From positions 3,546 through 67,545 of the forward strand of contig JBEISK010000005.1 in NCBI GenBank assembly GCA_040375445.1: a DNA stretch of 64,000 nucleotides. Reading direction: 5' to 3'. The stretch's first letter is position 1. Each line of letters opens with the position of its first letter. A program made the translations under genes and the position numbers. Positions 735 through 48,286 of this stretch are shown here, piece after piece. Under the pieces are notes generated by a model. That model was not told the DNA's origin, searched no databases, and saw only the letters and a list, made by a program, of their open reading frames with translations. Source of the stretch: Gammaproteobacteria bacterium (GTDB lineage: Bacteria; Cyanobacteriota; Vampirovibrionia; Vampirovibrionales; JAJTHC01).

Positions 735-2246
735 TTAGCCCACCATGTTGATAATGCTTTTGTAGATCTCATTATAGGTTTGCACAATGCGAGACGACGC
801 TTCAAACATACGCTGATACTTAATCATATCCAAGCCTTCTTCATCCGTATTCACCCCTGAAACGGCTTGACGGTTGGCTTGTAGTTGATTCAACAAGTCT
901 TTTTGACTTTCGTTACGGTCGCTATAACTTTTGGTGTCTGTTCCCAATGCTGACACGAAGTTTTGATGAAACCCTTCAAGCGTATTATTATTCAAGACCG
1001 CAAATATCGTATTCTTAATCGCCGCCATGCTCGCCGCATTCCGAGAATCCCCCACCCCAGCAAAGTTACCTGGTGCGGTGGCGTCGTTATTAGCAAGGGA
1101 AATTTTGTCCATATTATTGTCAAAAGCCGTGTTGACATTCAAGTAAAGCAGTTTAGGGCCTGACACATAAGAGGGGTCTAAGCTGTAAAGATTCGTATAC
1201 GCATCCGCCGTGTGAAGGGTACCTGCCAAATCTCGACCCGTGGCTTGTAAGTTGTTAAATTGAGTAGAAAGCGTTTCCAACATATTCGACAAATCTTCAA
1301 ACGTGGAATACACGTTTTTAATCGACGTATTATTACCAGCGACATCTAAGACCGCTTTCACTTCTCCAGACGCAATGGTATTCGTAATATCCACCGCACC
1401 GTTTACTGTTGTGATGCGAGCAGGGATTCGATCCGCATTAGGCAAGGTACTAGCGGTGAGTGCAAGGGTATCGAGGATTTTACCGCCTCTCAACATATCC
1501 TGCCCCCCGATGCTTAAGCTCACTTGGTAATTGGGCATATCCGTTGTTTTGACATCAATGACTTTAGAAATCTGTTCGAGCAGAAGGTTACGCTTGTCGA
1601 TTAAGTCATTCGGCACCGCATTGGCGGATGTCGAAATCCCGATTTGACGGTTTAAATCGGCAATTAAGGCAATTTTCGTATTGACATCATTCACCCTTAA
1701 ACCCAACTGGCTATTGGGCCAGCTTCCTGCGGTGGAATCGCCCACTAGGTTTTTATGCAAGTCCATCAGTTGTTGCCCTTGTTGCTTAAACACACGAATC
1801 ATGTCCCGACTTTGCTGAATAAAGGCGGTACGAGCAGGCAAGCTCTGCGGATTGTTTCGCATATCTGAAACAGCGTCAAACATGGCTTGCACTCGGTTTG
1901 AAAGCCCTGAAAAGGACGGTTCCCCAATAATGCCTTCGGTTTGTCCTAAAAGCGTTGCCGCAGTCTTGACTTCACCTTGGACGGCTTGTTCTTGCCGATA
2001 TTGCTTGTCTAAAAAGCTGTCTCTCAGTTGTGTAATGCCTGTGACATCGACACCTTGCCCGATGAAAAAACCCGCCCCTGACGTTTTGAGTGGGTAAGCG
2101 GTTGCTAAATCTACCCGCTGGCGAGTGTAGCCTTCCACATTGGCATTTGAAACGTTATGGTTCACCACGTTCAACGCCGTTTGAGCGGCAAGCAAACTTC
2201 TTTGTGCGGTTTGAAATCCGAAGAAACTAGGGCTAATACTCATCAT
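735..2246 (-). CDS. flgK: Flagellar hook-associated protein 1 FlgK
   Basis: N-terminal ALNVVNHNVSNANVEGYTRQRV and C-terminal SGVNTDEEGLDMIKYQRMFEASSRIV axial-protein motifs; start moved to the MMSIS Met. Confidence 0.92.
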   Translation of the reverse strand: MMSISPSFFGFQTAQRSLLAAQTALNVVNHNVSNANVEGYTRQRVDLATAYPLKTSGAGFFIGQGVDVTGITQLRDSFLDKQYRQEQAVQGEVKTAATLLGQTEGIIGEPSFSGLSNRVQAMFDAVSDMRNNPQSLPARTAFIQQSRDMIRVFKQQGQQLMDLHKNLVGDSTAGSWPNSQLGLRVNDVNTKIALIADLNRQIGISTSANAVPNDLIDKRNLLLEQISKVIDVKTTDMPNYQVSLSIGGQDMLRGGKILDTLALTASTLPNADRIPARITTVNGAVDITNTIASGEVKAVLDVAGNNTSIKNVYSTFEDLSNMLETLSTQFNNLQATGRDLAGTLHTADAYTNLYSLDPSYVSGPKLLYLNVNTAFDNNMDKISLANNDATAPGNFAGVGDSRNAASMAAIKNTIFAVLNNNTLEGFHQNFVSALGTDTKSYSDRNESQKDLLNQLQANRQAVSGVNTDEEGLDMIKYQRMFEASSRIVQTYNEIYKSIINMVG

Positions 2247-2297
2247 GGGGGAAACTCTCTTTCTCATCCGTTTGGCGTTCAATCAACGGGTAATTTT

Positions 2298-2867
2298 CTA
2301 TACTTGGCGTTGCATGGTACTGATGCTTTGATTTTTCTTCGTTTTGCCTTGGGCGGTATAAGTGAGTTCTTTTTGCCCACTTTGAATGTGTTGTTTGACC
2401 CATGCCATACCTTGATTCACCCAGTCTAGAGAGGCATGTAATAAGCGTTGCGTTTCTTCTTGCAAGTGAGCGACTTGTGTTAAAGTGACTTTAAGATCGT
2501 TTCTCACTAGGTTGAACGCCTCTTTTTGATCCGTCGGCATTGCCAGTAGAATCATCGTGGCGTGAACAGGTTCAAGGGCAAGTGGCCAGAATTCTTTAAG
2601 CATCTCCATGCGTCCTTCTTCAAGGGCATCGAGCTGTTTACGCAGTTTTTTGAGTACTTTGTCTTGAGCGGGTAAATCCATGACGCTTTGTTTTAACAGA
2701 CTGACTTTCTTTTGCAATAACAGATCTTGCACATTACGGTAAATGTGCAATTGTTGCTGTAAATTGTCAATCATCGTCACCGCTTGATAGGGTGTTAACG
2801 TACTTAGAACAGGGGTGTGTGGTTCAGCATTAAAGGGTGTAGAATGTTGTGTGTTTGGTGAAATCAT
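2298..2867 (-). CDS. flgN: FlgN-like flagellar export chaperone
   Basis: Helical protein immediately upstream of flgK; C-terminal LQEETQRLLHASLDWV...TYTAQG pattern typical of FlgN. Confidence 0.7.
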   Translation of the reverse strand: MISPNTQHSTPFNAEPHTPVLSTLTPYQAVTMIDNLQQQLHIYRNVQDLLLQKKVSLLKQSVMDLPAQDKVLKKLRKQLDALEEGRMEMLKEFWPLALEPVHATMILLAMPTDQKEAFNLVRNDLKVTLTQVAHLQEETQRLLHASLDWVNQGMAWVKQHIQSGQKELTYTAQGKTKKNQSISTMQRQV

Positions 2868-3535: not shown

Positions 3536-3639
3536 TGTCCCCTCTCCTAATTTTAGGAGAGGGAAGAGAACGTCGCTAGACGTTCGAGGGTGAGGTTAAA
3601 CCTTAGACTCCGTTTGTGGGTTTAACCGCCCCCTAACCC
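3536..3639. repeat. BoxC/REP-like palindromic repeat, family A (partial, inverted relative to 10667 copy)
   Basis: tgtcccctctcctaattttaggagaggg hairpin, then the reverse complement of the 10667-10794 body. Confidence 0.85.
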
Positions 3640-14687: not shown

Positions 14688-15305
14688 ATGCCCCTTCTTG
14701 AATCTACTGCAACCGCCACAACTCTTGCCACGCCCACCAGCCAAACCTTGATCTGGAAGTACATGGGAAGCGTCGGCTTGTGGAGCGTCTTGATTATCGG
14801 CGGATTGGTCGCTTTTTTGTGGCTTCTGAAAACCAAGCCCGAAGTCGTGCAGATCATCCGCAGTTGGGTGGGTATGGGGCATCCGCCGAGTCAAGAAGAC
14901 GAAAGCAAGCTTAAGGTCGAAGAAACCTTAGAGCTTGACGAAAACAAGCAATTGATGATTATTCAATGCGAACACGAGCGTTTTCTCGTGTCTTCAGGCG
15001 CCGATGGCTTGCGTTTTCTCACCAAGCTAGACAGTAGCCAAGCTTACGTGGAAGCCTTGCAAGACGCCTACGAATCTGAAAAAACCACGCATGAAGATGC
15101 CGCAGGCACACGAGGCATGGCGATTACCCCCAATGATACAGGCTATAGTCCTGCTAGTACACAAGCAGGGGTCACGGCTCCGACTAGCCCACGTTCAGGC
15201 ACCTTTTTACAAGGGGTGAGAAGTCTCTTCCCGTTGACACAGGGGACGCCACAGTCATGGGGGACTACTTCGTCGTCATCGCATCCACCATTCGGCTTAA
15301 AATAG
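14688..15305 (+). CDS. fliO: FliO-like export-gate assembly protein
   Basis: AGGAG RBS; one TM then LKVEETLELDENKQLMIIQCEHERFLV (FliO cytoplasmic domain); directly upstream of fliP. Confidence 0.75.
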   Translation: MPLLESTATATTLATPTSQTLIWKYMGSVGLWSVLIIGGLVAFLWLLKTKPEVVQIIRSWVGMGHPPSQEDESKLKVEETLELDENKQLMIIQCEHERFLVSSGADGLRFLTKLDSSQAYVEALQDAYESEKTTHEDAAGTRGMAITPNDTGYSPASTQAGVTAPTSPRSGTFLQGVRSLFPLTQGTPQSWGTTSSSSHPPFGLK

Positions 15306-15360
15306 CGAAGGCTCTGAAAAATAAGGCATTTGGCGTGCTTTAATAAGCGTGTATAACTGC

Positions 15361-15490
15361 TTGTCCCCCCTCCTGATTTTAGGAGGGGGTTAGGGGGCGG
15401 TTAAATCCTCAAACGAAGTCTAGGGTTTAACCTCACCTCGAACGTCTGAAGACGTTCTCTGCCCTCTCCTAAAATTAGGAGAGGGGACAA
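15361..15490. repeat. Full-length family A element
   Basis: Colinear near-copy of 10667-10794 with the same terminal inverted repeats. Confidence 0.9.
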
Positions 15491-15528
15491 GACAAGAACA
15501 CCCCTTCAAGAAAAAGGAAGACACCCCC

Positions 15529-16188
15529 ATGGCGACCGCCGCTTTTTCAGGAGCCTTTGCCAATTTAGACCCTGCCTTGCAGCTCATGTTGCTGATGGCA
15601 AGCTTGACCCTGCTTCCCTTTATGGTGTCAGGCATGACGAGTTTCTTAAGGTATGTCATTGTTTTTTCCATTCTCAAGCAAGCCATGGGAACCCAGCAGG
15701 TTCCGCCTTCTATGGTCTTAGTGGGGCTTGCCTTAATCCTCACCTTTTACACCATGAGTCCTGTTTTTGGAGAGATGTACACGGCGGTGAATCCCTTATT
15801 GAATAACCCCAAATCAAATGTCATGGATATTATGAACAAAGGCGTGGTGCCGTTGAAGCAATTTATGATGCGTCAAACGCGAGAGGAAGATGTGCGTATC
15901 TTCTTAGAAGTGTCTCGTAAACGAGCCCCCGAATCGGTGAACGACTTAAGTATTTGGGAAATTACGCCTGCCTTTATGTTGAGTGAATTGCGGACGTCCT
16001 TTGAAATTGGCTTTGTCATTTTCATTCCCTTTGTCATCATCGATTTGGTGGTTGCCAACATCTTGATGGCACTGGGGATGATGATGCTGTCGCCCACGAT
16101 TATTTCATTGCCGTTTAAGATCTTGATTTTCATTGCGGTCGACGGTTGGTCTTTAATTGTCAGAGGTCTCATTCAAAGCTTCAACTAG
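15529..16188 (+). CDS. fliP: Type III export gate protein FliP/SctR
   Basis: MTSFLRYVIVFSILKQAMGTQQVPP, PAFMLSELRTSFEIGF, LGMMMLSPTIISLPFK..VDGW. Confidence 0.93.
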   Translation: MATAAFSGAFANLDPALQLMLLMASLTLLPFMVSGMTSFLRYVIVFSILKQAMGTQQVPPSMVLVGLALILTFYTMSPVFGEMYTAVNPLLNNPKSNVMDIMNKGVVPLKQFMMRQTREEDVRIFLEVSRKRAPESVNDLSIWEITPAFMLSELRTSFEIGFVIFIPFVIIDLVVANILMALGMMMLSPTIISLPFKILIFIAVDGWSLIVRGLIQSFN

Positions 16189-16206
16189 GAACTGTCTGTA
16201 AGAAGT

Positions 16207-16355
16207 CTCCCTCACCCCACCATGGTCGAAAAAGTTAAAACTTTTTCTCCTGGGAAAGAAAACCGTTGGTTTCCTCTCCCAACCTCTCCTTCCTAAAGGC
16301 GAAGATTCACTTCGTGAATAAGAAGGATGTTTACCTCTCCCAAAGGGAGAGGGAG
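16207..16355. repeat. BoxC-like repeat interrupted by module B
   Basis: ctccctcaccccacc ... [module B 16246-16319] ... cctctcccaaagggagaggga. Confidence 0.7.
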
Positions 16356-16393
16356 TAAAGCCCCCTAAATCCCCTAAAGAAAGTGTTGCCCCC

Positions 16394-16804
16394 ATGGATT
16401 ACCTACTCGAACATGTGAGACAAGGCATCTTATTGAGCCTCATGCTTTCAATGCCCCCTATTTTAGCGGCGGCGGTGATTGGTTTAATCGTGGGTATTTT
16501 ACAAGCCGTCACCCAAGTACAAGAACAAACACTTTCCGCTGTGCCTAAAATGATTGTGGTTTTTTTGATACTGATTTTAGCAGGGGGTACGATGCTTGAA
16601 ATGTCTGGGCAGTATATTCGCGAATCCATGCAACTGGCGTTTCAAGTGGTTCCAGCGACAGGGCATTTCTTGTTACCGCCTCAGCAAAAAAATGCAGGCT
16701 ATCAAAAAACGGCGGGTGAAAAAGGCACCGTTTATATGATTCAAGAAAAACGTCAAGCTCGTAATTCGGCTCAAGCCAGCCGTAAAACCATGGAAACGCC
16801 GTAA
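16394..16804 (+). CDS. fliQ: Type III export gate protein FliQ/SctS with C-terminal extension
   Basis: GLIVGILQAVTQVQEQTLSAVPK motif; 136 aa versus about 89 aa typical. Confidence 0.9.
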   Translation: MDYLLEHVRQGILLSLMLSMPPILAAAVIGLIVGILQAVTQVQEQTLSAVPKMIVVFLILILAGGTMLEMSGQYIRESMQLAFQVVPATGHFLLPPQQKNAGYQKTAGEKGTVYMIQEKRQARNSAQASRKTMETP

Positions 16805-17610
16805 TGGCAGGTTTTGAATCGTTATTACAAGGCTTTCACGTCTTACATGCCCAAGCCAATGGAGGCATTGATGCGGGGCTTTTGATGTTATGTCGCTTTG
16901 GTGGATTCATCAGCATTGCCCCCGTACTAAGCCGTAAGGATATGCCCCCCCAATTTAAAATTGGGTTGCTCTTAATGCTTACCTTTGCGATGATGTCTCA
17001 TCCTTCGGTGCAGGCATCCGCCAATATCTTGAAAAGCACCGTCATTACAGAGTTTATGATGCTTATGGTCATCAACATTGTGCTAGGCTTATTCCTTGGG
17101 TTTGCCGTACGACTTATTTTTGAAGCGGTGTCTATGGCAGGCGGATTCATTACCATGCAAATCGGGCTTCAAATGGCGAGTATGATGGATCCTTCTACCA
17201 AGCAAAGTTCAGCGATTATGGGGCCTATTTTCAGTGGTGTTGCGTCAATTATTTTTGTCTACGTCGGAGGCATTGAACTATTGCTTAAAACACTGGACAA
17301 AAGCCTAGGACTGGTGCCGTTGCACGTGTTGAATGTGGCGTTTTTTAAGGTGATTACGGTCTATCAGTGGATTGATACATCGGCGTCGATTATTCCGCTG
17401 GCCATGTTGATTTCCGCACCGTTTTATATTACGACGATTTTGATGGATTGTATTTTAGGCATCGTGAACAAAACCGCTCAACAGATCCCTGTGTTTCAGT
17501 TGAGTGCGAGCATCAAACCCCTATTGGGTTTGATTATCTTTTTCGTGACGGTACCGACCTTGTTTCCCCTCATCCGCCATATAATGATCACCATGTTGCT
17601 GCGGATTTAA
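16804..17610 (+). CDS. fliR: Type III export gate protein FliR/SctT
   Basis: RFGGFISIAPVLS, MAGGFITMQIGLQMASMMDP, KTAQQIPVFQLSASIK; 1-nt overlap with fliQ. Confidence 0.9.
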   Translation: MAGFESLLQGFHVLHAQANGGIDAGLLMLCRFGGFISIAPVLSRKDMPPQFKIGLLLMLTFAMMSHPSVQASANILKSTVITEFMMLMVINIVLGLFLGFAVRLIFEAVSMAGGFITMQIGLQMASMMDPSTKQSSAIMGPIFSGVASIIFVYVGGIELLLKTLDKSLGLVPLHVLNVAFFKVITVYQWIDTSASIIPLAMLISAPFYITTILMDCILGIVNKTAQQIPVFQLSASIKPLLGLIIFFVTVPTLFPLIRHIMITMLLRI

Positions 17611-17620
17611 GCATATTATT

Positions 17621-17648
17621 CCCTCTCCTAATTTTAGGAGAGGGGACA
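17621..17648. repeat. Single family A hairpin
   Basis: ccctctcctaattttaggagaggggaca. Confidence 0.8.
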
Positions 17649-17793
17649 AAGCCGTTTGCTTTACAACCAAAAAAACATGGGTTTTAGGCACTAGTCAAAA
17701 GAAGCTTCCCTTTGTCATAATGAAAAAGAGTAGCTCTTTGAAAATTAACAAAAAACAGACGTGAGGGTCAAGAAATCGACTCAAATCCCTTTA

Positions 17794-17941
17794 TTGTGTG
17801 TGTCAAAAAACGAGTTTTATGTGTCAGAAATAGGGGTTTCGTGTGACGAGAATCGGTATTTCGTGTGTCGAAAATAGGGGTTTCGTGTGTCAGAAATGAG
17901 GGTTTCGTGTGTCGAAAATTAGATTTCGTGTGTCGGAAATT
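17794..17941. repeat. Seven direct repeats with 21-22 bp period (iteron-like)
   Basis: Core TTTCGTGTGTC(A/G) starting at 17794, 17815, 17837, 17859, 17881, 17903, 17924 (first two degenerate). Confidence 0.85.
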
Positions 17942-18021
17942 ACCTCTTTTCACTAGCCTTTTTTATTTTTATGGCATAATAAAAATTGATTATACCTCCG
18001 AAACGTAAAAGGTGTTTCTCT

Positions 18022-19230
18022 ATGCCAAATGAATCCAACCCCTCAACCGACGCCCACTTTACCGATGACCTCTATACCCCCTTTGCCAGCGATTGGCCTT
18101 CTATTGCAGGGCGTCCGCCACGGCGGGTGTCTAAAAAAATATGGGTTGGTAACGTCCCTGTCGGTGGCAATGCCCCTGTTTCCGTGCAAAGCATGCTTGT
18201 GAACGACACCCGAGACATCAAAGAAAGCATCATGCAGATTCAACGCCTCGCGGATGCAGGCGTGGATATTGTGCGTTTAGCTGTTCCTGATGCCGAAGCC
18301 GCAGAAGCCCTAAAATCAATCATTCCAGCGTCGCCTGTGCCCATTGTAGCAGATATTCACTTTGATTACCGCCTCGCCTTGCAAGCGGCGGACAACGGCG
18401 TGCATGCCATTCGTATCAATCCTGGTAATATCGGATCTAAAGACTTTGTGCGAAAAGTCGTAGAAAAATGCAAAGAACGTGAACTCCCGATACGTATTGG
18501 GGTTAACGGTGGTTCGGTGGAAAAAGCCATTAAATTGGCTTACCCCAAGCAGTTGGAACGTCAATTGGTGGAAAGTGCCTTGCTCAACGCTCGCATTTTA
18601 GAAGACGAAAACTTCGATCAGTTTAAAATTTCGGTCAAAGCCAGCGACCCTTTGCAAGCGGTCACGGCGTATCGGGAACTGGCTCGGCGGTGTGATTACC
18701 CATTACATTTAGGCGTCACCGAAGCAGGCACCTTAAAACGCGGCATCTCAAAAAGTGCGTTTGCCTTAGGCATGCTCCTCTATGAAGGCATTGGCGATAC
18801 CATTCGGGTGTCGTTAACGGCCGATAGTGTGGAAGAAGTCTTTGCAGGACAAGAAATTTTACGAAGCGTGGGCTTACGTCAAGAAGGGGTGAACATTATT
18901 TCATGCCCCGCATGTGGACGTTGCGAAGTGGATTTACATGGCTTGACCACTCAAGTAGAACAGCTTATCGCGAAATTGGATGTGCCTTTGACGGTGGCAG
19001 TCATGGGATGCTTTGTCAACGGACCTGGTGAAGCCGAGCATTCGGATGTCGGCATTGCAGGGGGTATTGGGCAGTATTACATTTTCCGTGGGGAAGATCG
19101 TATTCGCCGAGTCCCTGAAGCCGAAGCCTTGGATGCCTTAAAAGATGAGATTGAGCGAGCTACCGAAGAATTCAGAAAAGCGAACCCTGATTGGCAGGGA
19201 AGCAAGAAGGCTCAGCTGATTAGAAAGTAA
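18022..19230 (+). CDS. ispG: (E)-4-hydroxy-3-methylbut-2-enyl-diphosphate synthase
   Basis: VSVQSM, ADIHFDY, RINPGNIG, IRIGVNGGS, HLGVTEAG, ISCPACGR, MGCFVNGPGEA. Confidence 0.97.
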   Translation: MPNESNPSTDAHFTDDLYTPFASDWPSIAGRPPRRVSKKIWVGNVPVGGNAPVSVQSMLVNDTRDIKESIMQIQRLADAGVDIVRLAVPDAEAAEALKSIIPASPVPIVADIHFDYRLALQAADNGVHAIRINPGNIGSKDFVRKVVEKCKERELPIRIGVNGGSVEKAIKLAYPKQLERQLVESALLNARILEDENFDQFKISVKASDPLQAVTAYRELARRCDYPLHLGVTEAGTLKRGISKSAFALGMLLYEGIGDTIRVSLTADSVEEVFAGQEILRSVGLRQEGVNIISCPACGRCEVDLHGLTTQVEQLIAKLDVPLTVAVMGCFVNGPGEAEHSDVGIAGGIGQYYIFRGEDRIRRVPEAEALDALKDEIERATEEFRKANPDWQGSKKAQLIRK

Positions 19231-19706: not shown

Positions 19707-22142
19707 ATGTTTTTTAATAAAAAAGAAGACGCCCATTCATCAAAAAAAAAGGTTAATACACTGGCTCCCGCCTTTCGCTATCCCAAAGTTAAAAATCGAG
19801 AGAAAAATCTCTTAACGCAAGATCCCCCTTCTTTTAATGATGATATTGACAACTACCTTCCTGAATACAATCCCACGGCTCACTTGAAAGTTGACCCCCC
19901 TTCATTAAATCTAAATCCAGATAGTTTACCTCCTTTAGTAAAGCCTGCAACACAGGAGTCGCCTATTTTTAGCTTAGAAGACGATTTGGAGACCAATCCT
20001 GAACTCACGACAAGCCTTTTTTTGGAAGAAGACCCTTCTTCCCTTGAACAGGAAAGTTCTTTTTCACCCATCTTTTCTGTTGAAACAGAAGGGGAATCCC
20101 CTCATTTTATGAAAGAAATAGAATCCGTATCCCTAGAAACGCCTATAACCGTATTGAGCGAGCCTGCGTTTAACTTGCCAAGTGAGATACCAAGCCTTAG
20201 TTCTTATGAAGCACCGCTTTCTTTTGAAGCCACGGATTCAGACGTAGAAAACGTCTATGAAACGGTATTGACTCATGAAATCGAAGATCTGTCTAAACAA
20301 ACTGTACGTGAAGAAGAGCATTTACTCAGTCCTCATGTGGCGAAACCTGCTCCTGAAAAGTTGACGCCAGCGGAAGAACTTTCGATTCAAGACCGTACCC
20401 TCGCGTTTGAAAATGAAGATCACTATTATAATCCCCTTGCCATTGGCGAAACCCTGCCAAGCTATCGCCTCGCCGAAACACAGGCACAAAAGCCGATAGA
20501 CACAACAGAGCTGGATGTTTTTGAAGATTTAGAAGAAGCAGATTTAGACTTACAAGAAAGCTTTGCCGTGGCTCAAAAAAGCAGTGAAGCGTTAGAAGCT
20601 GCTTTTAGCGTTAGCCCTACTGTTGAAGCCTTTAAAGCAGTCGAAGACCCTGTAGAAGATGCCGTTTTTGAAGAGGAAGCATCCGTTGAAGTTGTTTTTG
20701 AAGTAGAGCCTTCTAACGACCCGCCCGTTTTAAGTCCGCAGGAAGAAGACAGTCCCTTTTCGTTTCTTTCCATTGAAGAACCGCCTTCTTTAAGCGAACT
20801 GGAGACAACCGCTCTTTCAGATGTTTTTGAAACAGATATTGATGCATCTTTAGATTCGTCCCTGAATACTTCTTTAGATACCATCTTCGATACTTCAGTA
20901 GAAGCAGAAGCTCCCCCTGAAGAACCTCCCTTTATCCCTATGGATGAGAACACCTTTGACTTTTCACTCTTTTTGGATGAACACCCTGAAGCGGATACAC
21001 CCCTTATTGCTGAGGAAAGTAAGAACGTAGAAGCGGTTGTCCTTCCGAATCAAGACAATAACACGCAAGAGCTGTTTCCAAACAATCTCAATGACGATCT
21101 TGCCCCTTCAGGACGCATGGAGTCCCCCACAGAATCGCTTGAAAGTATTGAAGTGGTTGAGTTTCCAACAGAAGAAAACTTAGTAGTTGAAGACGATGAT
21201 GATTTACAATTCGTCGCCGAACCTTTTGCGTCACCTTCGGTGGAAACGAATTTCATTGCTTTGGAAGAAAATTTGGAAACTTTGTGCGATGCTAATCTTG
21301 AACTAGCGACTTTAGGCTTAGAAACGCCCTTAAATGAAGACCTTTCTGAAAAACGCTTGCCGGAAATTTTACCAGATGCCTTGCCTTTAGATGCCTTTTT
21401 TCTAGAAGAAGACGATCCCTTTGAAACCTTGCCCCCAGAGCTTAGCTCCCTTGAAGAAACAACCCCCACCCTTGCTTACGAAACCTTTCGCCAATTAGAA
21501 GAAGGTGATGATGGCTTAGATGCTGTTGAAAGCACTTTGTCCAACCACTTTTCCATTAAAAGCGATGCCGTGCTTGAAGATCCCAATGCTTTTTTAGATC
21601 CTAACTTGTTTTTTAGTTTAGATAGCTTGGAAGACGGATCAGCACCTGAAGAACTTTCAATGGATTTAGACCCTTTACCTGACTTTGAATCACTGGTGCC
21701 TATCTCCCCCCCTCACGTGTATACTTCGTCTGAAACCAGTGTGGCACAATCCAATAGAAATGAGCTTGCCACCCACGTCCCACCACAAGGCACCAGCGAA
21801 GTCACCTTAGAAGAATACGCCTGCTTGGCATTAGAAGATTTGGATATTCTCGTTTCACAACCTTTTCCTTATGGGGAAAGTCACTTGTACTTAGTTCACG
21901 TTAATAACATGTATGCCATTATTGCCCTCAAGCAAAACAAGTACACCTTCTTACAATCATTTTCAACCTTGCCTGAAGGCGTAGAAACTGCCAAAACAGC
22001 GGAAGGTCTAAAGTCAAAAGACGGCACGATCCAATTAACGTGGAATGCGTCTAGTTACAATGAACATATTTTTGACTTACAATTAGGCGCTTGGCACGCC
22101 TTAGTTGTAGAAGACAGCCAAAATATTACTTTGATGAAGTAG
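19707..22142 (+). CDS. Large highly acidic low-complexity protein with small C-terminal globular domain
   Basis: 811-aa ORF; E/D/P/S/L-rich for about 700 aa; last about 110 aa looks like beta-strands. Confidence 0.8.
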   Translation: MFFNKKEDAHSSKKKVNTLAPAFRYPKVKNREKNLLTQDPPSFNDDIDNYLPEYNPTAHLKVDPPSLNLNPDSLPPLVKPATQESPIFSLEDDLETNPELTTSLFLEEDPSSLEQESSFSPIFSVETEGESPHFMKEIESVSLETPITVLSEPAFNLPSEIPSLSSYEAPLSFEATDSDVENVYETVLTHEIEDLSKQTVREEEHLLSPHVAKPAPEKLTPAEELSIQDRTLAFENEDHYYNPLAIGETLPSYRLAETQAQKPIDTTELDVFEDLEEADLDLQESFAVAQKSSEALEAAFSVSPTVEAFKAVEDPVEDAVFEEEASVEVVFEVEPSNDPPVLSPQEEDSPFSFLSIEEPPSLSELETTALSDVFETDIDASLDSSLNTSLDTIFDTSVEAEAPPEEPPFIPMDENTFDFSLFLDEHPEADTPLIAEESKNVEAVVLPNQDNNTQELFPNNLNDDLAPSGRMESPTESLESIEVVEFPTEENLVVEDDDDLQFVAEPFASPSVETNFIALEENLETLCDANLELATLGLETPLNEDLSEKRLPEILPDALPLDAFFLEEDDPFETLPPELSSLEETTPTLAYETFRQLEEGDDGLDAVESTLSNHFSIKSDAVLEDPNAFLDPNLFFSLDSLEDGSAPEELSMDLDPLPDFESLVPISPPHVYTSSETSVAQSNRNELATHVPPQGTSEVTLEEYACLALEDLDILVSQPFPYGESHLYLVHVNNMYAIIALKQNKYTFLQSFSTLPEGVETAKTAEGLKSKDGTIQLTWNASSYNEHIFDLQLGAWHALVVEDSQNITLMK

Positions 22143-42163: not shown

Positions 42164-44266
42164 CTACTCTTCCATGTTAATGGACGCCACTGCCTGCACC
42201 TTCACATCAGGGATGAGTTCGCTGTACGCCAAAACCACCGAATTGGGCAGGTGTCGGTCTAACAGCTCAAACAACGGCAAGCGAATACGAGGCGAGCATA
42301 AGATCACAGGCGGTCTTCCATAATGCTGTTGCACCATGCGAGACGTGTCACTAATGGCTTGAATCAACTGTTGCACCTGCATCGGATTCAACAAGAACAT
42401 GACGCCCAATTCCGTGCGTTGGCAGGCTTCATCCAACACGGTTTCCCATTCGTTAGACAAGGTCGCCGCCAGTAACTGCTTGGTTTTATCCGCATGAGAA
42501 ATACAGATTTGACGACCTAGTGAAGCCCTTAATCGTTCTGAAAGCGTGTCAGATTCTCGGCTAAATCGAGCGTAATCACTCAAGCGTTCAAAAATGAATT
42601 GAATGTCTTTAATCGACACTTTTTCTCGAATGAGGTTGACGAAAATCTTACGTAAGTCATTGGGCGTCAACATATTCGGCACGAGTTCTTGAATGACACT
42701 TGGATCACTACCCCGCATCAGCTCCATGAGCTTAAGTACATCAATTTTCGTCATCACATCATCGACGTATTTAATCACCACCATTTGCAAGTGAGTAATC
42801 ACGGCATCGGTCGATTCAACCGCCACGGTCTGCAATTGTTCAGGAATATCCGCTTGAGCCACCCATAAGGCAGGCACGTTCAAGGCGGAATCCGTGCCTT
42901 GAATGACTTGAGCAGGCTGCGCGACGCCATAGGTGTCAAAATAACTTTGCAAAATCATGTAATAACCAGGGTAAACCTTGCCTGTGGCGACAGGGTTGCC
43001 TCGAATGGAAATGAGGTATTCGTAAGGTTCAATTTCGGTGGAATCCATAATGCGGATGTTGGGTAGAATGAAGCCGAGTTCATCGGTTAAGCGAGTCCGC
43101 AGACCTGCAATTTTACCGAGCAACTGCCCGTCTTGCTCAGGGTCTGCAATTTGAAGGAGGCTTGCCCCCACTTGAAGACTAAGTACATCGACGCCCATTC
43201 GTTCGTACATACGGTTGGGATCAATCATTTGTTGCATGTTTTCTTGCACTTCTTGCAATTCACCCATTTGAGCCTGAACATCGCTGGTGATGAAGACGCT
43301 AAACGCCATGCCCCCTAGAATCATAGCAAACAGGACAAAAGGCCACCAGCTTAAACCTGTAATGGAAGAGGTCACCGCAATAAAGAGCAAGAACATCGCC
43401 GCAAAAATAAGACCATACGGCTTGCCACGAAACTGGGTGAAGAAATCTTTCGCCAAACTGTCGGAAACACTGGTGGTACGCGTCAGTGTAATCCCAATCG
43501 CCACGGACATAATCAAGGCAGGAATCTGTGAAGCCAAGCCGTCACCGATTGTTAGAATCGTGTATTTATTGACGGCTTCCATAATCGGTAAGCCTTTCAT
43601 CAAAACCCCAATGGCAATACCCCCCACGATGTTAATAATTGTGATGATAATCGCCGCAATCGAATCTCCTTTGACGAACTTCATGGCACCATCCATCGAA
43701 CCCAACAGGGACATTTCCCGTTGCAAGTTTTCACGCAATTGCCGTGCTTGATCAGGTCCAATAAAGCCTGCGTTTAAGTCGCCATCGATCTGCATTTGTC
43801 GACCGCCCAAAGAGTCGAGAGCGAATCTCGCCCCAACTTCCGCCACACGTTCCGACCCCTTGGTAATAACCATAAAGTTCACGGTTAAAATGATTAAGAA
43901 CAAAATCGCCCCAACCACCATGTTACCGCCTGTAACGAATTCTCCGAAGGCTTGCACCATCTGCCCCGCATGACCATGTGCCAAAACGGCACGAGTAACC
44001 GCAATCCCCAACGCCAATCGAAACAGGGTAGACACCAAAATCAAAGACGGAATCGCCGCCAAATCCAGAGGTTGCTTAACGTACAAGGACATCATGAGCA
44101 AGACCACGGAAAGGCTGATGTTAAAGGCAATGGAAGCATCCATAAACCAATCAGGCAAAGGCACCAAAATGATCAAAATTAGAATAAGCACGCCAACAAC
44201 CAGCAATATCTCACTAATAGGAGGAATTGCAAAGGCGTTGTTTGGAGGAGCGTCGGACATCATCAT
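42164..44266 (-). CDS. flhA: FHIPEP-family type III export protein FlhA/SctV
   Basis: TLFRLAL, VITKGSERVAEVGARF, DGAMKFVKGD, LTIGDGLASQIP; cytoplasmic domain with LIREKVSIKD and VLAYSEL. Confidence 0.92.
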   Translation of the reverse strand: MMMSDAPPNNAFAIPPISEILLVVGVLILILIILVPLPDWFMDASIAFNISLSVVLLMMSLYVKQPLDLAAIPSLILVSTLFRLALGIAVTRAVLAHGHAGQMVQAFGEFVTGGNMVVGAILFLIILTVNFMVITKGSERVAEVGARFALDSLGGRQMQIDGDLNAGFIGPDQARQLRENLQREMSLLGSMDGAMKFVKGDSIAAIIITIINIVGGIAIGVLMKGLPIMEAVNKYTILTIGDGLASQIPALIMSVAIGITLTRTTSVSDSLAKDFFTQFRGKPYGLIFAAMFLLFIAVTSSITGLSWWPFVLFAMILGGMAFSVFITSDVQAQMGELQEVQENMQQMIDPNRMYERMGVDVLSLQVGASLLQIADPEQDGQLLGKIAGLRTRLTDELGFILPNIRIMDSTEIEPYEYLISIRGNPVATGKVYPGYYMILQSYFDTYGVAQPAQVIQGTDSALNVPALWVAQADIPEQLQTVAVESTDAVITHLQMVVIKYVDDVMTKIDVLKLMELMRGSDPSVIQELVPNMLTPNDLRKIFVNLIREKVSIKDIQFIFERLSDYARFSRESDTLSERLRASLGRQICISHADKTKQLLAATLSNEWETVLDEACQRTELGVMFLLNPMQVQQLIQAISDTSRMVQQHYGRPPVILCSPRIRLPLFELLDRHLPNSVVLAYSELIPDVKVQAVASINMEE

Positions 44267-44346: not shown

Positions 44347-45264
44347 TTAATGTTCGTCGAAGGCAGGAGCATCCCACGTTTGGAGGGTAGCATCGCCTTC
44401 AAGCAAGTGATCAAACTCAGCTTCGGCGGAAGATTGCGAGGCGATCGCCACATTCGGCAAGCCTAAAATCTTGCGAATCATGTGAAGTTGCGTGGTAAAC
44501 GTCGCATCAATTTGCCCACCAGACGTTTCTACAATGCAACTACCTAAGTCCACTTCGGCGTCGCCCACCACAATAATATGGCGCTGCACTTCGCCTTGCC
44601 ACGTTTCTTCATGTTCTTTAATATGTTGACGCAAAAATTTCACATCGCTGGGGTGTACTTTAAACACCACTTCTTTCTGGGTGCGATCCACCTTGCCTAA
44701 AACATCAAGAGCGATACCCACGACCAAGGCACGATCGCACGACAATTCCACCTTAATCAAGCGCTGGGCGATCGCCATTGCCATGGGGGCAATGTCTTGC
44801 ACAGATTTTTCAAGCACTTGGCTTTTAATCGTATCCAACTGGTCTAAAATCTGCCAAATCGCTTTGGACGATTCTTCGGCTTCTTTCATGCCTTCGACGT
44901 AACCATTTTGCTTGGCTTCTTCAAAGCCTGCTTGATACCCTTGTGGATGTCCATCCTGATAACCTTTGTTATAACCCGTATCATAAGCGTCTTGATAGAT
45001 GGCTTGCGGGTCTAAAGGGGCTTCATGGTCACTACGGCGACGCTTATAGGTGCTGGGGTCTTGGGGAACTTGTGTTTCTTCCCAAACCAGTTGATTCAAG
45101 AAATCATCGTCTGACGATGTGGGGGCTGTTGGTGAAGACACACCTGCTTGCTGATGAGCCACTTGGGCTAGCCACGGAGGCAACGGCTCCCCTGTGGGAA
45201 GCGTCCCATGACTGGTGGGGTTTTGTGTGGCTTGTTGTGAACGAATCCGTTTAATCAGAGGCAT
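44347..45264 (-). CDS. fliH: FliH/SctL ATPase-regulator
   Basis: GxxxG run (GYNKGYQDGHPQGYQAGFEEA), KVHPSD, GSCIVETSGGQIDA. Confidence 0.9.
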   Translation of the reverse strand: MPLIKRIRSQQATQNPTSHGTLPTGEPLPPWLAQVAHQQAGVSSPTAPTSSDDDFLNQLVWEETQVPQDPSTYKRRRSDHEAPLDPQAIYQDAYDTGYNKGYQDGHPQGYQAGFEEAKQNGYVEGMKEAEESSKAIWQILDQLDTIKSQVLEKSVQDIAPMAMAIAQRLIKVELSCDRALVVGIALDVLGKVDRTQKEVVFKVHPSDVKFLRQHIKEHEETWQGEVQRHIIVVGDAEVDLGSCIVETSGGQIDATFTTQLHMIRKILGLPNVAIASQSSAEAEFDHLLEGDATLQTWDAPAFDEH

Positions 45265-45307: not shown

Positions 45308-46510
45308 TTAGGCAAGAATGGTATTGTAGTAATTGAATAGGGCTTGTTCGAGTTTCGGCGTCCACTGCGGGATTTGATTATACCCGTTGGAGTGCTTATG
45401 TACAAGTCCTGCTGCCTTAAATAGACGTTGTATTTCAATACGTTCACCTTGCATCAAGTTTTCTAGCACCGTTCGGTTGTCAGGGCGTGCTAAAATATCA
45501 CATAGGGCGTGACGTAGGCGTTTTTCTTGGGCATGGGGATCTTCAGCCACCGCCTTAACGTTGTGTCTAAAGTCATTAAGCTTTTCAAGCACTTCATTCA
45601 TGGGCAGTTCTTGGGCAATATTTTCTACATTCATATAATGAATAATCTGATTACCCACCCCAGAAGGGAACTGATTCAACCATTCATTTTGAAGTGGAGG
45701 GGCTTGCGTCGTTAAAAACAAAGCGAGTGCCGCCAATTTAAGTTGCACATGCTTGGTATTCTGATGAGGTATCGCCACAGGTTCTGGCGGAGGGGCAGGG
45801 GCATACATCGCTTCATAAGACTGAAGGGCTTGAGGCGACGGCATGGTCTGAATAGGCACTTGGCGATTCATGGGTGAAGCTGGAACGTCTTTTTCATCAA
45901 AAAGAGGAGCCTCTTCAAGAGGCAGTTCAGCTTGAGGGGTTTTATTAAATCGATTCGTGGGAGCATCAGGGGGCATGTCTTCTTGCCCAATCGGGCCATG
46001 AATATTTTCATATTCGCCCAAATAATGGTGCAAGGCACTGGCGACCATTTGCTCCATCCAGCTTTCAAGTTGGGCGTCATCAAACTGCAATTCGGGCGTC
46101 GCTTCTTGCCCTACGGTGGCGGAAACAAACTGCTTGGCTTGAAAGAAGGCATCTTTCGCCAAACCTTGCAAAATGACTGATTTAGGCTCGCCTTTTAGAT
46201 TGTGTTCTTGAGCCTTTTCACTGGCATGAATAATTGCATGGGTAAATAGCGACAAAACCTTATAGCAGTGCCCCACATTAAAGGCCAAATAAGGAGCCTT
46301 AGGATCCTGCGGTTGAAACCCTGGTTCTTGCTGAAGTAAGCCCACCGCCACTTGAATAAAGTGAGCCGTAATATCCGCCGAACGTTTAATTTCACTGATA
46401 TTTAAGCCTGAACTACTGAGGGCTTCCGTGACTTTCTCGGCAAACTCCACCGAAAGGGCTTCGGCGTTCATGGAAATAATCAAAGGATCCACAGGGGGAC
46501 GTTTTGCCAT
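45308..46510 (-). CDS. Hypothetical protein in the fliG position, with a FliG-like segment
   Basis: Between fliF and fliH; LKLAALALFLTTQAPPLQNEWLNQFP..QIIHYM resembles one FliG helical repeat. Confidence 0.55.
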   Translation of the reverse strand: MAKRPPVDPLIISMNAEALSVEFAEKVTEALSSSGLNISEIKRSADITAHFIQVAVGLLQQEPGFQPQDPKAPYLAFNVGHCYKVLSLFTHAIIHASEKAQEHNLKGEPKSVILQGLAKDAFFQAKQFVSATVGQEATPELQFDDAQLESWMEQMVASALHHYLGEYENIHGPIGQEDMPPDAPTNRFNKTPQAELPLEEAPLFDEKDVPASPMNRQVPIQTMPSPQALQSYEAMYAPAPPPEPVAIPHQNTKHVQLKLAALALFLTTQAPPLQNEWLNQFPSGVGNQIIHYMNVENIAQELPMNEVLEKLNDFRHNVKAVAEDPHAQEKRLRHALCDILARPDNRTVLENLMQGERIEIQRLFKAAGLVHKHSNGYNQIPQWTPKLEQALFNYYNTILA

Positions 46511-46531: not shown

Positions 46532-48286
46532 TTATTCTGCGGAACTTAACCATTGAGCAATATTCATATCCTGCGGACGAATCGCTGGGGCATCGTTGGA
46601 CGCATTCTTCATGTTTTCATTCAATTCCTTCAGGGCATCTTTCAGTTTTTCAACGCTCTGTTGGCGGGTGCGTTCAAGCACTTGATGCTGTTCTTGTTGG
46701 GCTTGCATCAACTGTTCATTCAGCTGTTGCTGATACTGCAAGTGCGTTTGCGTTTCTTCCGCATGTTGACGCAATTGCTGTAATTCGTTAATCGCCGAAT
46801 CCAAGGTTTCTGCGGTATGCTGTGTCTTTCCACTATTACCCATAAACATCATAATGGCAACCGCTCCTATTACCGTAATCGCCATCCAAGGGAGCCACGT
46901 CATCACGCCAGCCGCCGTTTCAGGGCTTAAACCTGGCAATAAAAAGCCAGCGGTATTCATCGGCGGTTCAGGTAAAGGATCTTCTCCTGCCAAAGGCTTG
47001 GGGTTTTCAAAATCGGTGCGAGCCAAGCTCACATTCAACGGATTGACTCGTGGGCTTGCGGAACGAGCAATCAAGACTTGTAAATCTTCAGGCGGAATGT
47101 TAGGGTAGTAATCGTCATCAATCGTCACCGCAATCGAAACATCTTCCACCATACCCGGTACGCTGGTTTCCACCCATTGCGTATGCCCGTTTTGATAGCT
47201 CACTTCCGTGCCTTCACGCAAGTAGCCGTCGTTACTGCTACTTTTGGATATATTTTCCATAGACTGCATGGATTGACCGATCGCCACTTTACTGTCGAGT
47301 TCAGGGGGTAAGAATCCCGAAACAGGTCCACTGGCTTTACCGTTGGAACTGGAACTTCCTCCACTACCACCGAGTGTTTCTTGAAAACGTTGCTTACTTG
47401 CCACTACTGATTTGGATGGATCAAAGTTCTGCACCATGGTTTCTTTGGGCGATTCACGCAAGAAGGTCGAAACTGTCACCACATAACGCCCTTCGCCAAT
47501 GAGCTTGTCGAGTTGAGCCGCCACTTTTTGCTTCATGTAAAAATCTTGATCCGCAGCCTTGTCTTGCAATTCTAAGGCGGAATCTAGCACACTATTATAG
47601 GTATTGCCGTTGGTGTCCGACAGTGCCACATGCTTGGCTTCCAACCCTTGAATACCCCCCACCATTAAATTGATGACGGCTCTGACTTTGTCTCGTGTGA
47701 GCCGTTCACCAGGAGGCAACGTCACTTGCACCGCCGCCGACGGAGGCTTACGATCGCTGGCAAAAAGCGTGGGGTCTGCTATTGAAATTTTCACATGGGC
47801 GTCTTCCACAGGGGGCATTTTGCGGATGATTCTGGCCAAATCGCCTTCTTGCCCACGAATGAGTTTGATCTGCTTTTCTTCACGGCTTGCCATCATATCG
47901 CTGGTGTCAAAGGCTTCCATGCCGAGCTTGCCGTCCATTAAGCCTGATTGAGCGAGAGTCAGCAGAGCTTGATCCCGATCGTTTAAGGTGGCATCTTCCG
48001 CAAACATCAACGACACTTTGCCCCCTGTGCCAGCGAGGGTATCGAGGCGGATGTCTTGCCGAGAGAGTAAGGCTCTGATTTCGACGGCTTTACCTGCGGC
48101 GATGTCGGTGGCTAAAGGGAGCTGTTCTTCGCTCAGGACTTTCGCCCCTTCATCGACCTTGACTGCTTTGCCTCCACTGCCTGCGACGGCTGTGATGATA
48201 ATAATCACCACAAGCAGAACCACCCCTCCGATGATCGAAAAGAAGAGTCTTCTATTTTCCATTAAGGCTTGCAATTGTGGAGGCAC
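46532..48286 (-). CDS. fliF: MS-ring protein FliF/SctJ-like
   Basis: Two TMs; GMEAFDTSD..SREE..RGQEGDLARII..VEDAHVKI..LF..PPSAAV..HVALSDTNG (YscJ/FliF ring motif). Confidence 0.85.
   Translation of the reverse strand: MPPQLQALMENRRLFFSIIGGVVLLVVIIIITAVAGSGGKAVKVDEGAKVLSEEQLPLATDIAAGKAVEIRALLSRQDIRLDTLAGTGGKVSLMFAEDATLNDRDQALLTLAQSGLMDGKLGMEAFDTSDMMASREEKQIKLIRGQEGDLARIIRKMPPVEDAHVKISIADPTLFASDRKPPSAAVQVTLPPGERLTRDKVRAVINLMVGGIQGLEAKHVALSDTNGNTYNSVLDSALELQDKAADQDFYMKQKVAAQLDKLIGEGRYVVTVSTFLRESPKETMVQNFDPSKSVVASKQRFQETLGGSGGSSSSNGKASGPVSGFLPPELDSKVAIGQSMQSMENISKSSSNDGYLREGTEVSYQNGHTQWVETSVPGMVEDVSIAVTIDDDYYPNIPPEDLQVLIARSASPRVNPLNVSLARTDFENPKPLAGEDPLPEPPMNTAGFLLPGLSPETAAGVMTWLPWMAITVIGAVAIMMFMGNSGKTQHTAETLDSAINELQQLRQHAEETQTHLQYQQQLNEQLMQAQQEQHQVLERTRQQSVEKLKDALKELNENMKNASNDAPAIRPQDMNIAQWLSSAE

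Follow-up and report, generated by a model that had tools for sequence, protein, structure and literature searches.

The DNA studied here (hereafter the window) is a stretch of 64,000 nucleotides, positions 3,546 to 67,545 of contig JBEISK010000005.1 in the genome assembly GCA_040375445.1. At positions 14688–17610 of the window are four co-oriented open reading frames (ORFs) that encode a FliO-like protein, FliP, FliQ, and FliR. The Pfam scores for FliO, FliP, Bac_export_3, and Bac_export_1 were all over their cut-offs, so the gate domains of a flagellar type III secretion system (T3SS) are present. This locus is probably the FliO/FliP/FliQ/FliR gate of a separate flagellar-type T3SS of Melainabacteria, which bears a rod, lacks a filament, and exists beside the flagellum. 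The divergent set of export-apparatus genes found in the window is referred to as set B, and the canonical set found elsewhere in the same genome as set A. Set B is separate and vertically inherited, and purifying selection maintains it in genomes that yielded no flagellin, FliG, or FliM. From its gene content we infer that set B forms a basal body that has a rod and lacks a hook and a filament. This body probably serves protein export or another task of the cell envelope, not swimming, because relatives without any flagellum keep set B too.

The nearest named relatives of the window FliP were those of Vampirovibrio sp. (91% identity), of Vampirovibrionales, and of metagenome-assembled genomes (MAGs) labeled as "Melainabacteria," and the host organism is a Vampirovibrio-like melainabacterium. 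Its genome of 1.91 Mb contains two full sets of export-apparatus genes, which are scattered across many contigs. The fliPQR genes are found twice, on contig C47 (the window, set B) and on contig C28 (set A). FliP of set A is 254 amino acids (aa) long, possesses an N-terminal hydrophobic leader, and is just 42% identical to the window FliP. FlhA, FliF, and FliI are also encoded twice, as is FlhB, of whose two genes one is broken by a contig end with a 47-aa identical overlap between the pieces. In addition, second copies of FliE and of FlgC were identified, as well as five FlgF/G-like genes and six flagellin_N genes. FliG, the FliM–FliN/Y pair, the FlgE-sized gene, and FlgK were each found only once. 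The set-A proteins scored above the flagellar equivalog cut-offs (FliP, 274.6; FliR, 186.3; FlhA, 827.7; FliF, 228.2), and set B did so for FliP only. FlgN and the only FlgK detected in the genome are encoded at window positions 735–2867, on the contig of the set-B gate and 12 kb upstream of it. For set A, FliH was not detected; a candidate for a divergent FliH is a 257-aa ORF without Pfam match directly after the only fliG (C22:14862–15635).

The preliminary description of this DNA regarded the gate locus as the partner of a second window locus at 42–48 kb, which encodes FliF, FliH, and FlhA (Table 1). This proposal is supported by G153, a closed genome of family f7 that possesses a single set. 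The only full-length FlhA of G153 matched the window FlhA with 880 bits, and its FliF matched the window FliF with 289 bits and the set-A copy with 67.5 bits. As the FliF and FlhA of this single-set genome match the window copies best, the two window loci are partners. The set-A copy of flhA is located on C20. The flhB and fliI genes were located on other contigs by comparison with G153: those of set B are at C44:7765–8856 (355 vs. 126 bits) and C49:32761–34221 (511 vs. 459 bits), respectively. The FlhB on C44 was also considered as the flagellar copy, given the Maf-like genes nearby, and was rejected as such because it is the set-B orthologue by the G153 comparison. Moreover, a SpoA-domain protein on C60 scored 52.7 with the SctQ model vs. 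41.1 with the fliN model, and the SpoA-domain protein of G153 scored 61.8 with fliN vs. 43 with SctQ.

The distribution of set B was followed in a sample of 201 genomes of the class, where an absence means a missing Pfam match in mostly draft genomes. In families f1, f2, f3, f4, f6, and f11, FliP was found in 81 of 81 genomes besides the window genome, nearly always with two matches, together with FliG_C (78/81) and Flagellin_N (81/81). One of the two FliPs was 63–100% identical to the window protein in its order-mates and 46–59% identical in the other families, and the second FliP was ~44% identical to it. Set B thus occurs alongside a full flagellar set in six families. A single B-type FliP was identified in 49/49 genomes of f7 (~99% complete), in 7/9 genomes of f8, and in 11/12 genomes of f9, and neither FliG_C nor Flagellin_N was matched in any of these families (0/49, 0/9, and 0/12 for each). 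Overall, 67 of the 70 genomes of f7–f9, which presumably are the Gastranaerophilales, had a B-type FliP, and FliG and flagellin were found in 0/70. Their single FliPs were 45–60% identical to the window protein, with open frames of ~212–254 aa. FliM was found in 0/9 genomes with set B only (B-only genomes) and in 4/4 two-set genomes tested. In families f5 and f10, FliP, FliG_C, and Flagellin_N were all found in 0/49 genomes. The set-B gate is therefore not co-inherited with FliG, flagellin, and FliM, as the gate of a motile flagellum would be. The idea that set B is the ancestral melainabacterial flagellar gate was dropped, as FliG and flagellin are missing from the B-only families.

The genes kept in the B-only genomes are arranged in conserved operons with intact frames. 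In G153, a SpoA-domain protein, FliO, FliP, FliQ (162 aa), and FliR are encoded in one run, with the FliO gene (31.5 bits) in the same position as in the window, although this genome has no flagellum. Further runs of G153 are FliE-FliF-unassigned 336-aa protein-FliH-FlhA and FlgF-FlgG-FlgB-FlgC, and its FlhB stands alone. Similarly, genome G007 of f9 contains the runs FlgF-FlgG-x-FlgB-FlgC-lytic transglycosylase (SLT)-FliF and FlhA-FliI. Exactly one full-length FlhA and one FlhB were found in 9/9 B-only genomes tested. Matches to the rod family ranged from 0 to 4 per genome in seven B-only genomes, all with frames of <300 aa, and no hook-sized gene was seen among them. The dN/dS values among B-only genomes were 0.04–0.08 for FliP, 0.09–0.17 for FliR, and 0.06–0.21 for FliQ, which are rough values as dS was saturated at 1.2–2.3. 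At these values, set B is under purifying selection and not in decay. An extra protein of ~500 aa, which is limited to the cytoplasmic C-terminal portion of FlhA (FHIPEP ~310–655), is encoded apart from the full-length FlhA in 3/3 f7 genomes tested, including G153 (C1:1501950–1502969), and in genome G001 of f4; this protein was matched in G030, G005, and G001.

When the gate proteins of the window were compared with flagellar and injectisome models, as the preliminary description had suggested, the flagellar models were ahead for FliP, FliQ, and FliR by narrow margins. The window FliP scored 234.7 with fliP (cut-off 217.45, passed) vs. 227.5 with the SctR-subfamily model NF009438 and 204.3 with yscR (cut-off 208.6). 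The cut-off of NF009438 (179) was passed by the window FliP and also by FliP of the flagellar set A (203.4, vs. 274.6 with fliP); thus, this model is not discriminating. FliQ scored 74.8 with fliQ (cut-off 88.9) vs. 66.6 with SctS (cut-off 76.5), and FliR scored 138.3 with fliR (cut-off 168.6) vs. 116.4 with SctT (cut-off 163.05), all of which are below the cut-offs. None of the yscR, SctS, and SctT equivalog cut-offs was reached by the set-B gate proteins. Among solved structures, flagellar FliP matched the window FliP with 176–199 bits and SpaP with 145–155 bits. Among plasmid records, the identities to the window FliP were 42–52% for FliP and 33–40% for SctR.

FEIGF and the two other FliP strings quoted in the preliminary description, ANILMALGMMMLSP and PLKQFMMRQTRE, are all present in the window FliP. 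The contrast that it drew between SctR and FliP holds for one of the motifs, ANIL.ALGM.MLSP, which separates set B, and fails for FEIGF, whose E was found in 21/145 other flagellar FliPs, 9/22 set-B FliPs, and 2/6 SctR references. At positions 2, 6, and 13 of the separating motif, the residues N, A, and S were each found in 22/22 set-B FliPs and 0/12 set-A FliPs. Their respective counts were 4, 41, and 15 among 145 other FliPs, 3, 6, and 4 among six SctR references, and 5, 4, and 6 among six proteins of the Myxococcota type. In addition, PLK.FM..QT in the window FliP is the flagellar state. It had been considered that such residues may be common in flagellar FliPs of Terrabacteria. All five Firmicutes FliPs had the flagellar state at ANIL.ALGM.MLSP, and therefore the set-B states are not a Terrabacteria trait and this objection does not hold here. 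The lack of a signal peptide in the 219-aa FliP was also noted correctly: the Pfam domain begins at residue 22 and the open frame has no start codon further upstream, so that a signal peptide would not fit in, no predictor having been run. A signal peptide is also absent from FliP of Oceanobacillus (221 aa) and Kurthia (231 aa). The length of the window FliP is that of the SctR references (median 217 aa). The FliO-like product scored below the cut-off of TIGR03500 (28.3 vs. 55.25) and above that of Pfam FliO (22 bits). FliO had been regarded as specific for flagella, a view that is out of date, as the accessible text of PMC12248157 places FliO within operons for the non-flagellar T3SS of Myxococcota and some Pseudomonadota. 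Thus, one injectisome-like FliP motif is real, and FEIGF, the absent signal peptide, and FliO are not diagnostic. The mosaic character ascribed to the locus is reflected in the small margins between the models and in the SctR-like N/A/S states of FliP. P0134, a 392-aa protein from a Candidatus Sericytochromatia MAG (sister class), is a FliO-FliP fusion, which scores as fliP (252.7) yet possesses the SctR-like motif states of set B and diverges close to the base on the flagellar side. Of the 150 nearest FliP representatives, many have a length of 350–760 aa, with the FliP domain at the C-terminus and with long N-terminal extensions or fusions.

The window FliQ carries LSMPPILAAAVIG, as described before, of which MPP is unique within set B. 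The YscS string given for comparison is also accurate, as YscS of Y. enterocolitica reads LSMPPVLVAAVVG. The pattern ".AA..G" was found in 20/20 set-B FliQs and also in some SctS. The hydrophilic C-terminal extension of the window FliQ was confirmed (Table 1). Such tails ranged from 35 to 247 aa in 20/20 set-B proteins, compared with 0–6 aa in set A (11/11), 0 aa in FliQ references (4/4), and 0–2 aa in SctS references (6/6). In these proteins, the FliQ tail is a marker of set B alone.

Phylogenetic analyses placed set B on the flagellar side of the split between FliP and SctR and not within the clade that the remaining sampled flagellar FliPs form. For comparison, the 150 representatives nearest to set B and a few named references were used, a sample that is biased and lacks Chlamydiota. 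In the careful FliP tree (51 rows, LG+C20 with posterior mean site frequencies), the SctR references and six SctR-like representatives were split from all else with 100/100 support by a branch of length 0.67. These six representatives are of the Myxococcota type, with relatives in Myxococcales, Bradymonadales, and Acidobacteriota, and scored 249–259 with SctR vs. 194–204 with fliP. Set B formed one clade (98/92), to which the single-copy FliPs of families f7–f9 belong. Its sister clade (98/91) comprised all other FliPs, with set A (100/98) nested inside. A quick tree of 66 rows, to which named Firmicutes, Nitrospira, FCB-group, and proteobacterial FliPs were added, had the same shape (set B, 98; other FliPs, 95), and set A grouped weakly with Firmicutes there. 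Set B is across a branch of 100/100 in the 51-row tree and of 100* in the 66-row tree from the Myxococcota-type SctR clade and is thus not a member of it. The concatenated FliPQR tree (28 rows, 558 columns) separated SctRST from set B and a clade of set A and proteobacterial FliPQR (98/96), with 100/99 support for the split; in this tree the "SctT" of Mycetohabitans is an unannotated hypothetical ORF with a very long branch. The internal order of families was alike within set A and within set B, which fits vertical descent of both sets since an early melainabacterium and loss of set A in f7–f9.

As the sampling is biased toward neighbors of set B and without Chlamydiota, the depth of set B is a lead and not a result, and its place in evolution, though of interest, is not settled. 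Set B might be a living side branch near the departure of the non-flagellar T3SS, rod-only and filament-less, which split before the other sampled flagellar gates radiated and retained gate residues that are otherwise characteristic of SctR and of the myxobacterial needleless T3SS; at present we consider this unlikely. If it were true, Melainabacteria would carry an intermediate of the transition from flagellum to secretion system, both in an alga predator and in gut symbionts. A scenario for this transition was reportedly laid out by Abby and Rocha in 2012.

The coordinates of the set-B genes in the window and of the adjacent features are given in Table 1. The hairpin directly after fliR is a possible terminator, and the repeats in the spacer between fliR and ispG could be a protein-binding array. 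The ispG (GcpE) gene downstream of the repeats had been described correctly, and no flhB is found there. Just downstream of ispG, an 811-aa ORF (19707–22142) is very acidic, rich in Pro, Ser, and Glu, and has no Pfam match.

Table 1. Features of the set-B gate locus and of its partner locus (positions in the window).
Feature	Position	Strand	Description
fliO-like (set B)	14688..15305	+	205 aa; membrane helix at the N-terminus; C-terminal part rich in Pro/Ser/Thr; Pfam FliO 29.5 bits
fliP (set B)	15529..16188	+	219 aa; no signal peptide; predicted pore-forming gate subunit; Pfam FliP 237.1 bits
fliQ (set B)	16394..16804	+	136 aa; conserved hairpin core; Bac_export_3 84.9 bits
fliQ hydrophilic C-terminal tail	about 16658–16801	+	48 aa, after the conserved core
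fliR (set B)	16804..17610	+	268 aa; start overlaps the fliQ stop; Bac_export_1 164.4 bits
Hairpin	17616..17649	+	directly 3' of the fliR stop; 16-nt arms, 88% complementary; 2-nt loop
Direct-repeat array	17798..17940	.	~6 copies of a 22-nt unit, core GTTTCGTGTGTC; two repeat families; spacing 22 nt
ispG (GcpE)	17986..19230		downstream of the repeats
flhA (set B)	42164..44266	-	FHIPEP 671 bits; TIGR FlhA 633.2, below the cut-off of 772
fliH (set B)	44347..45264	-	Pfam FliH 68.8 bits; same position as the FliH of G153
400-aa protein, no assigned family	45308..46510	-	sits where fliG lies in flagellar operons
fliF (set B)	46532..48286	-	MS-ring, 584 aa, full-length; YscJ_FliF 106.4 bits, YscJ_FliF_C 39.6 bits; TIGR fliF 111.5, below the cut-off of 129.75

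The 400-aa protein between fliH and fliF has no Pfam or NCBIfam match. It was present in 48 of 48 sampled order-mates, and a single query returned it from 0/152 genomes outside the order, which is no evidence of absence. Its AF2 model (mean pLDDT 73.9) has two helical domains. Residues 252–323 of the model matched FliG_N (8umd_B, Z 6.2; 5wuj_B, Z 6.1) with scores that do not rise above the noise expected of helical models. Comparison with FliG of the same genome by hhalign gave a probability of 0.2%, a search of its profile against PDB sequences found nothing below E 0.1, and Foldseek found nothing at E ≤ 0.001. An atlas match to FliG_N/FliG_M at 0.75 is a lead only.

As possible outer-membrane partners of set B, the secretins encoded on C43 and C28 were weighed and rejected, as they are GspD/PilQ-like, lie beside genes of a type II secretion system or unrelated genes, and are unlinked to set B. 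The two adjacent secretin genes at C43:107666–111685 (695 and 643 aa) are GspD/PilQ-like and below all curated cut-offs, with no pilus or secretion ATPase genes alongside.

By homology with solved gates, FliO would assist FliP, FliQ, and FliR to assemble into a helical export gate inside the set-B FliF ring. The gate would work with FlhA, FliH, and the 400-aa protein from the 42–48 kb region of the window as well as with FlhB (C44), FliI (C49), and the SpoA-domain protein (C60). FlhB and FlhA would be positioned around the gate, with FliH/FliI and the SpoA-domain protein at its cytoplasmic face. The gate would first export FliE and the FlgB/C/F/G rod proteins of its own set.

Other explanations for set B were weighed against this proposal. 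Set B may have arisen by duplication of the flagellar set A and evolved fast since, in which case it would not be an old lineage of its own; its depth and its SctR-like residues would be long-branch artefacts of faster change that followed a new function. This concerns only its origin and not its present function, and we hold it to be rather doubtful. Set B indeed has longer stems and lower model scores than set A, the biased sample of other FliPs leaves room for such an artefact, and a clade of sets A and B was not rejected for FliP alone by the approximately unbiased (AU) test (p 0.08). That clade was rejected, if marginally, with the FliPQR concatenate (p-AU 0.0215, delta lnL 10.4), and all three trees unite set A with other flagellar FliPs and leave set B outside (98/91, 98/96, and 95). 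Moreover, the Sericytochromatia fusion P0134 has the motif states of set B and still scores as fliP. It is also conceivable, although improbable, that the genome encodes two true flagellar systems, as dual-flagellated bacteria do, with set B as the gate of the second one, or that set B is an additional gate for the one flagellum. FliO, a full-length FliF, FliE, and FlgB/C/F/G are all flagellar-type parts, the genome has several flagellin_N genes, and Table S3 of PMC4451040, a source of which part was available, lists the duplicates of V. chlorellavorus simply as flagellar genes. Only one FliG, FliM, FlgE-sized gene, and FlgK were found in the genome, however, and most genomes of the families without detected flagellin or FliG carry set B (67/70).

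We consider it very improbable that set B represents the decaying leftovers of a lost flagellum, which is how the partial sets of gut Gastranaerophilales have been read. The accessible text of PMC4040986 takes these sets as the loss of a functional flagellum, and filament and switch genes are indeed absent from the B-only families. The genes that were kept, however, are orthologous to set B and not to the flagellar set A, their frames are intact and their operons conserved, dN/dS is at most ~0.2, and set B coexists with the full flagellar set in six families. Scarcely credible is a genuine non-flagellar injectisome, of which set B would be the SctR/S/T gate. The N/A/S states of FliP are common to SctR and the Myxococcota-type T3SS, the length of FliP is that of the SctR references, and the SpoA-domain protein on C60 scored higher with SctQ than with fliN, whereas the one of G153 scored higher with fliN. 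The preliminary description called the FliP and FliQ signatures injectisome-like. As a statement on the kind of system this does not hold, as FliP (100/100) and FliPQR (100/99) are on the flagellar side and FliF, FliE, and FlgB/C/F/G rod genes are found in place of SctJ/SctD and a needle. In addition, set B is below the yscR, SctS, and SctT equivalog cut-offs, and the GspD/PilQ-like secretins of the genome have no T3SS neighbors. SctJ/SctD rings and the SctC secretin were not associated with set B; the needle and translocon families were outside the search.

Several points weigh against a separate, filament-less export system. The function of set B is read from its gene content, and absences were scored with Pfam models over draft genomes, of which those of f8 and f9 are 79–98% complete. 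FliH and FliO were detected in the window genome only within set B. Some parts may therefore be common to set B and the flagellum, and the independence of set B in this organism is not proven. The 400-aa protein could, to judge from its predicted structure, be a very divergent FliG, and the SpoA-domain protein could form a C-ring, so that a rotor is possible. Finally, no outer-membrane conduit was identified for set B.

Partial flagellar gene sets in this class have been reported previously, in sources that were available in part. Most Gastranaerophilales retain part of the flagellar genes, which was taken as loss (PMC4040986), and partial sets were also found in earlier genomes (PMC5877343). 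According to the available text of bioRxiv 10.64898/2026.04.24.720558, about a quarter of genomes have a complete set and others keep, for example, flhB, fliI, and flgG, a retained subset that was "postulated to be involved in extracellular secretion." Table S3 of PMC4451040 includes among the duplicates of V. chlorellavorus a spoA-fliO-fliP-fliQ-fliR run and a fliH-flhA pair, and the main text, as far as it was accessible, mentions just a functional flagellum. In the accessible text of the literature found, supplements aside, the retained genes are nowhere described as a paralogous set of their own that occurs next to a flagellum. If our interpretation is correct, the "partial flagellar gene sets" of gut Melainabacteria would have to be read as a separate, conserved machine that has a rod of its own, not as debris of a lost flagellum, and a predator of microalgae would have a second type III machine. 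Set B would then be a natural test case for a flagellar export apparatus that is kept for a role other than motility, which bears on the origins of injectisomes. Structural work on export gates could also take up two clade markers, namely the tail of FliQ and the 400-aa protein in the place of fliG.

Similar to the canonical FliOPQR gate (Salmonella, PDB 6f2d), the set-B gate comprises the same four families, with their genes arranged alike, its best PDB matches are flagellar FliP, and it is on the flagellar side of the tree and linked to FliF, FliE, and rod genes. Different from the canonical gate, FliP of set B has no signal peptide and possesses the SctR-like N/A/S states, FliQ has its long tail, set B is outside the other sampled flagellar FliPs, and it is kept without flagellin, FliG, and FliM. 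SctR/SctS/SctT of the injectisomes (Ysc, Mxi-Spa, Hrp, and Rhc) form a homologous gate with a similar FliP length and some of the motif states. However, their identity to the window protein is lower than that of the plasmid-borne FliPs (33–40% vs. 42–52%), their ring and axial parts are different, and no secretin is linked to set B. The partial "flagellar" sets of the non-flagellated Gastranaerophilales (PMC4040986; bioRxiv 10.64898/2026.04.24.720558) are probably the same genes as those of set B. Whereas these papers, in their accessible parts, see a flagellar remnant, our results show that the genes are orthologous to a paralogous set that coexists with the full flagellar set in Vampirovibrionales and other families.

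The Myxococcota-type "needleless" T3SS* (PMC12075869, with FliO from PMC12248157) also includes FliO and occurs in a predator, according to the accessible parts of these sources. Its gate protein has nearly the same motif, ANILLALGMHMLSP, and the 150 representatives closest to the window FliP include six such SctRs. However, these proteins score as SctR and not as fliP and are separated from set B by the 100/100 branch. Lysobacter enzymogenes OH11, a non-flagellated predator, likewise keeps flagellar-type export genes without flagellin, and the accessible text of PMC7688988 describes that this flagellar-type system exports non-flagellar proteins used against other microbes. Different from set B, an old set that is paralogous to the flagellar one, coexists with it, and has rod genes of its own, the set of OH11 is its only flagellar set, minus fliC. 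As far as these sources describe them, the flagellar-type export of L. enzymogenes and the needleless T3SS* of Myxococcus are the closest functional precedents for set B.

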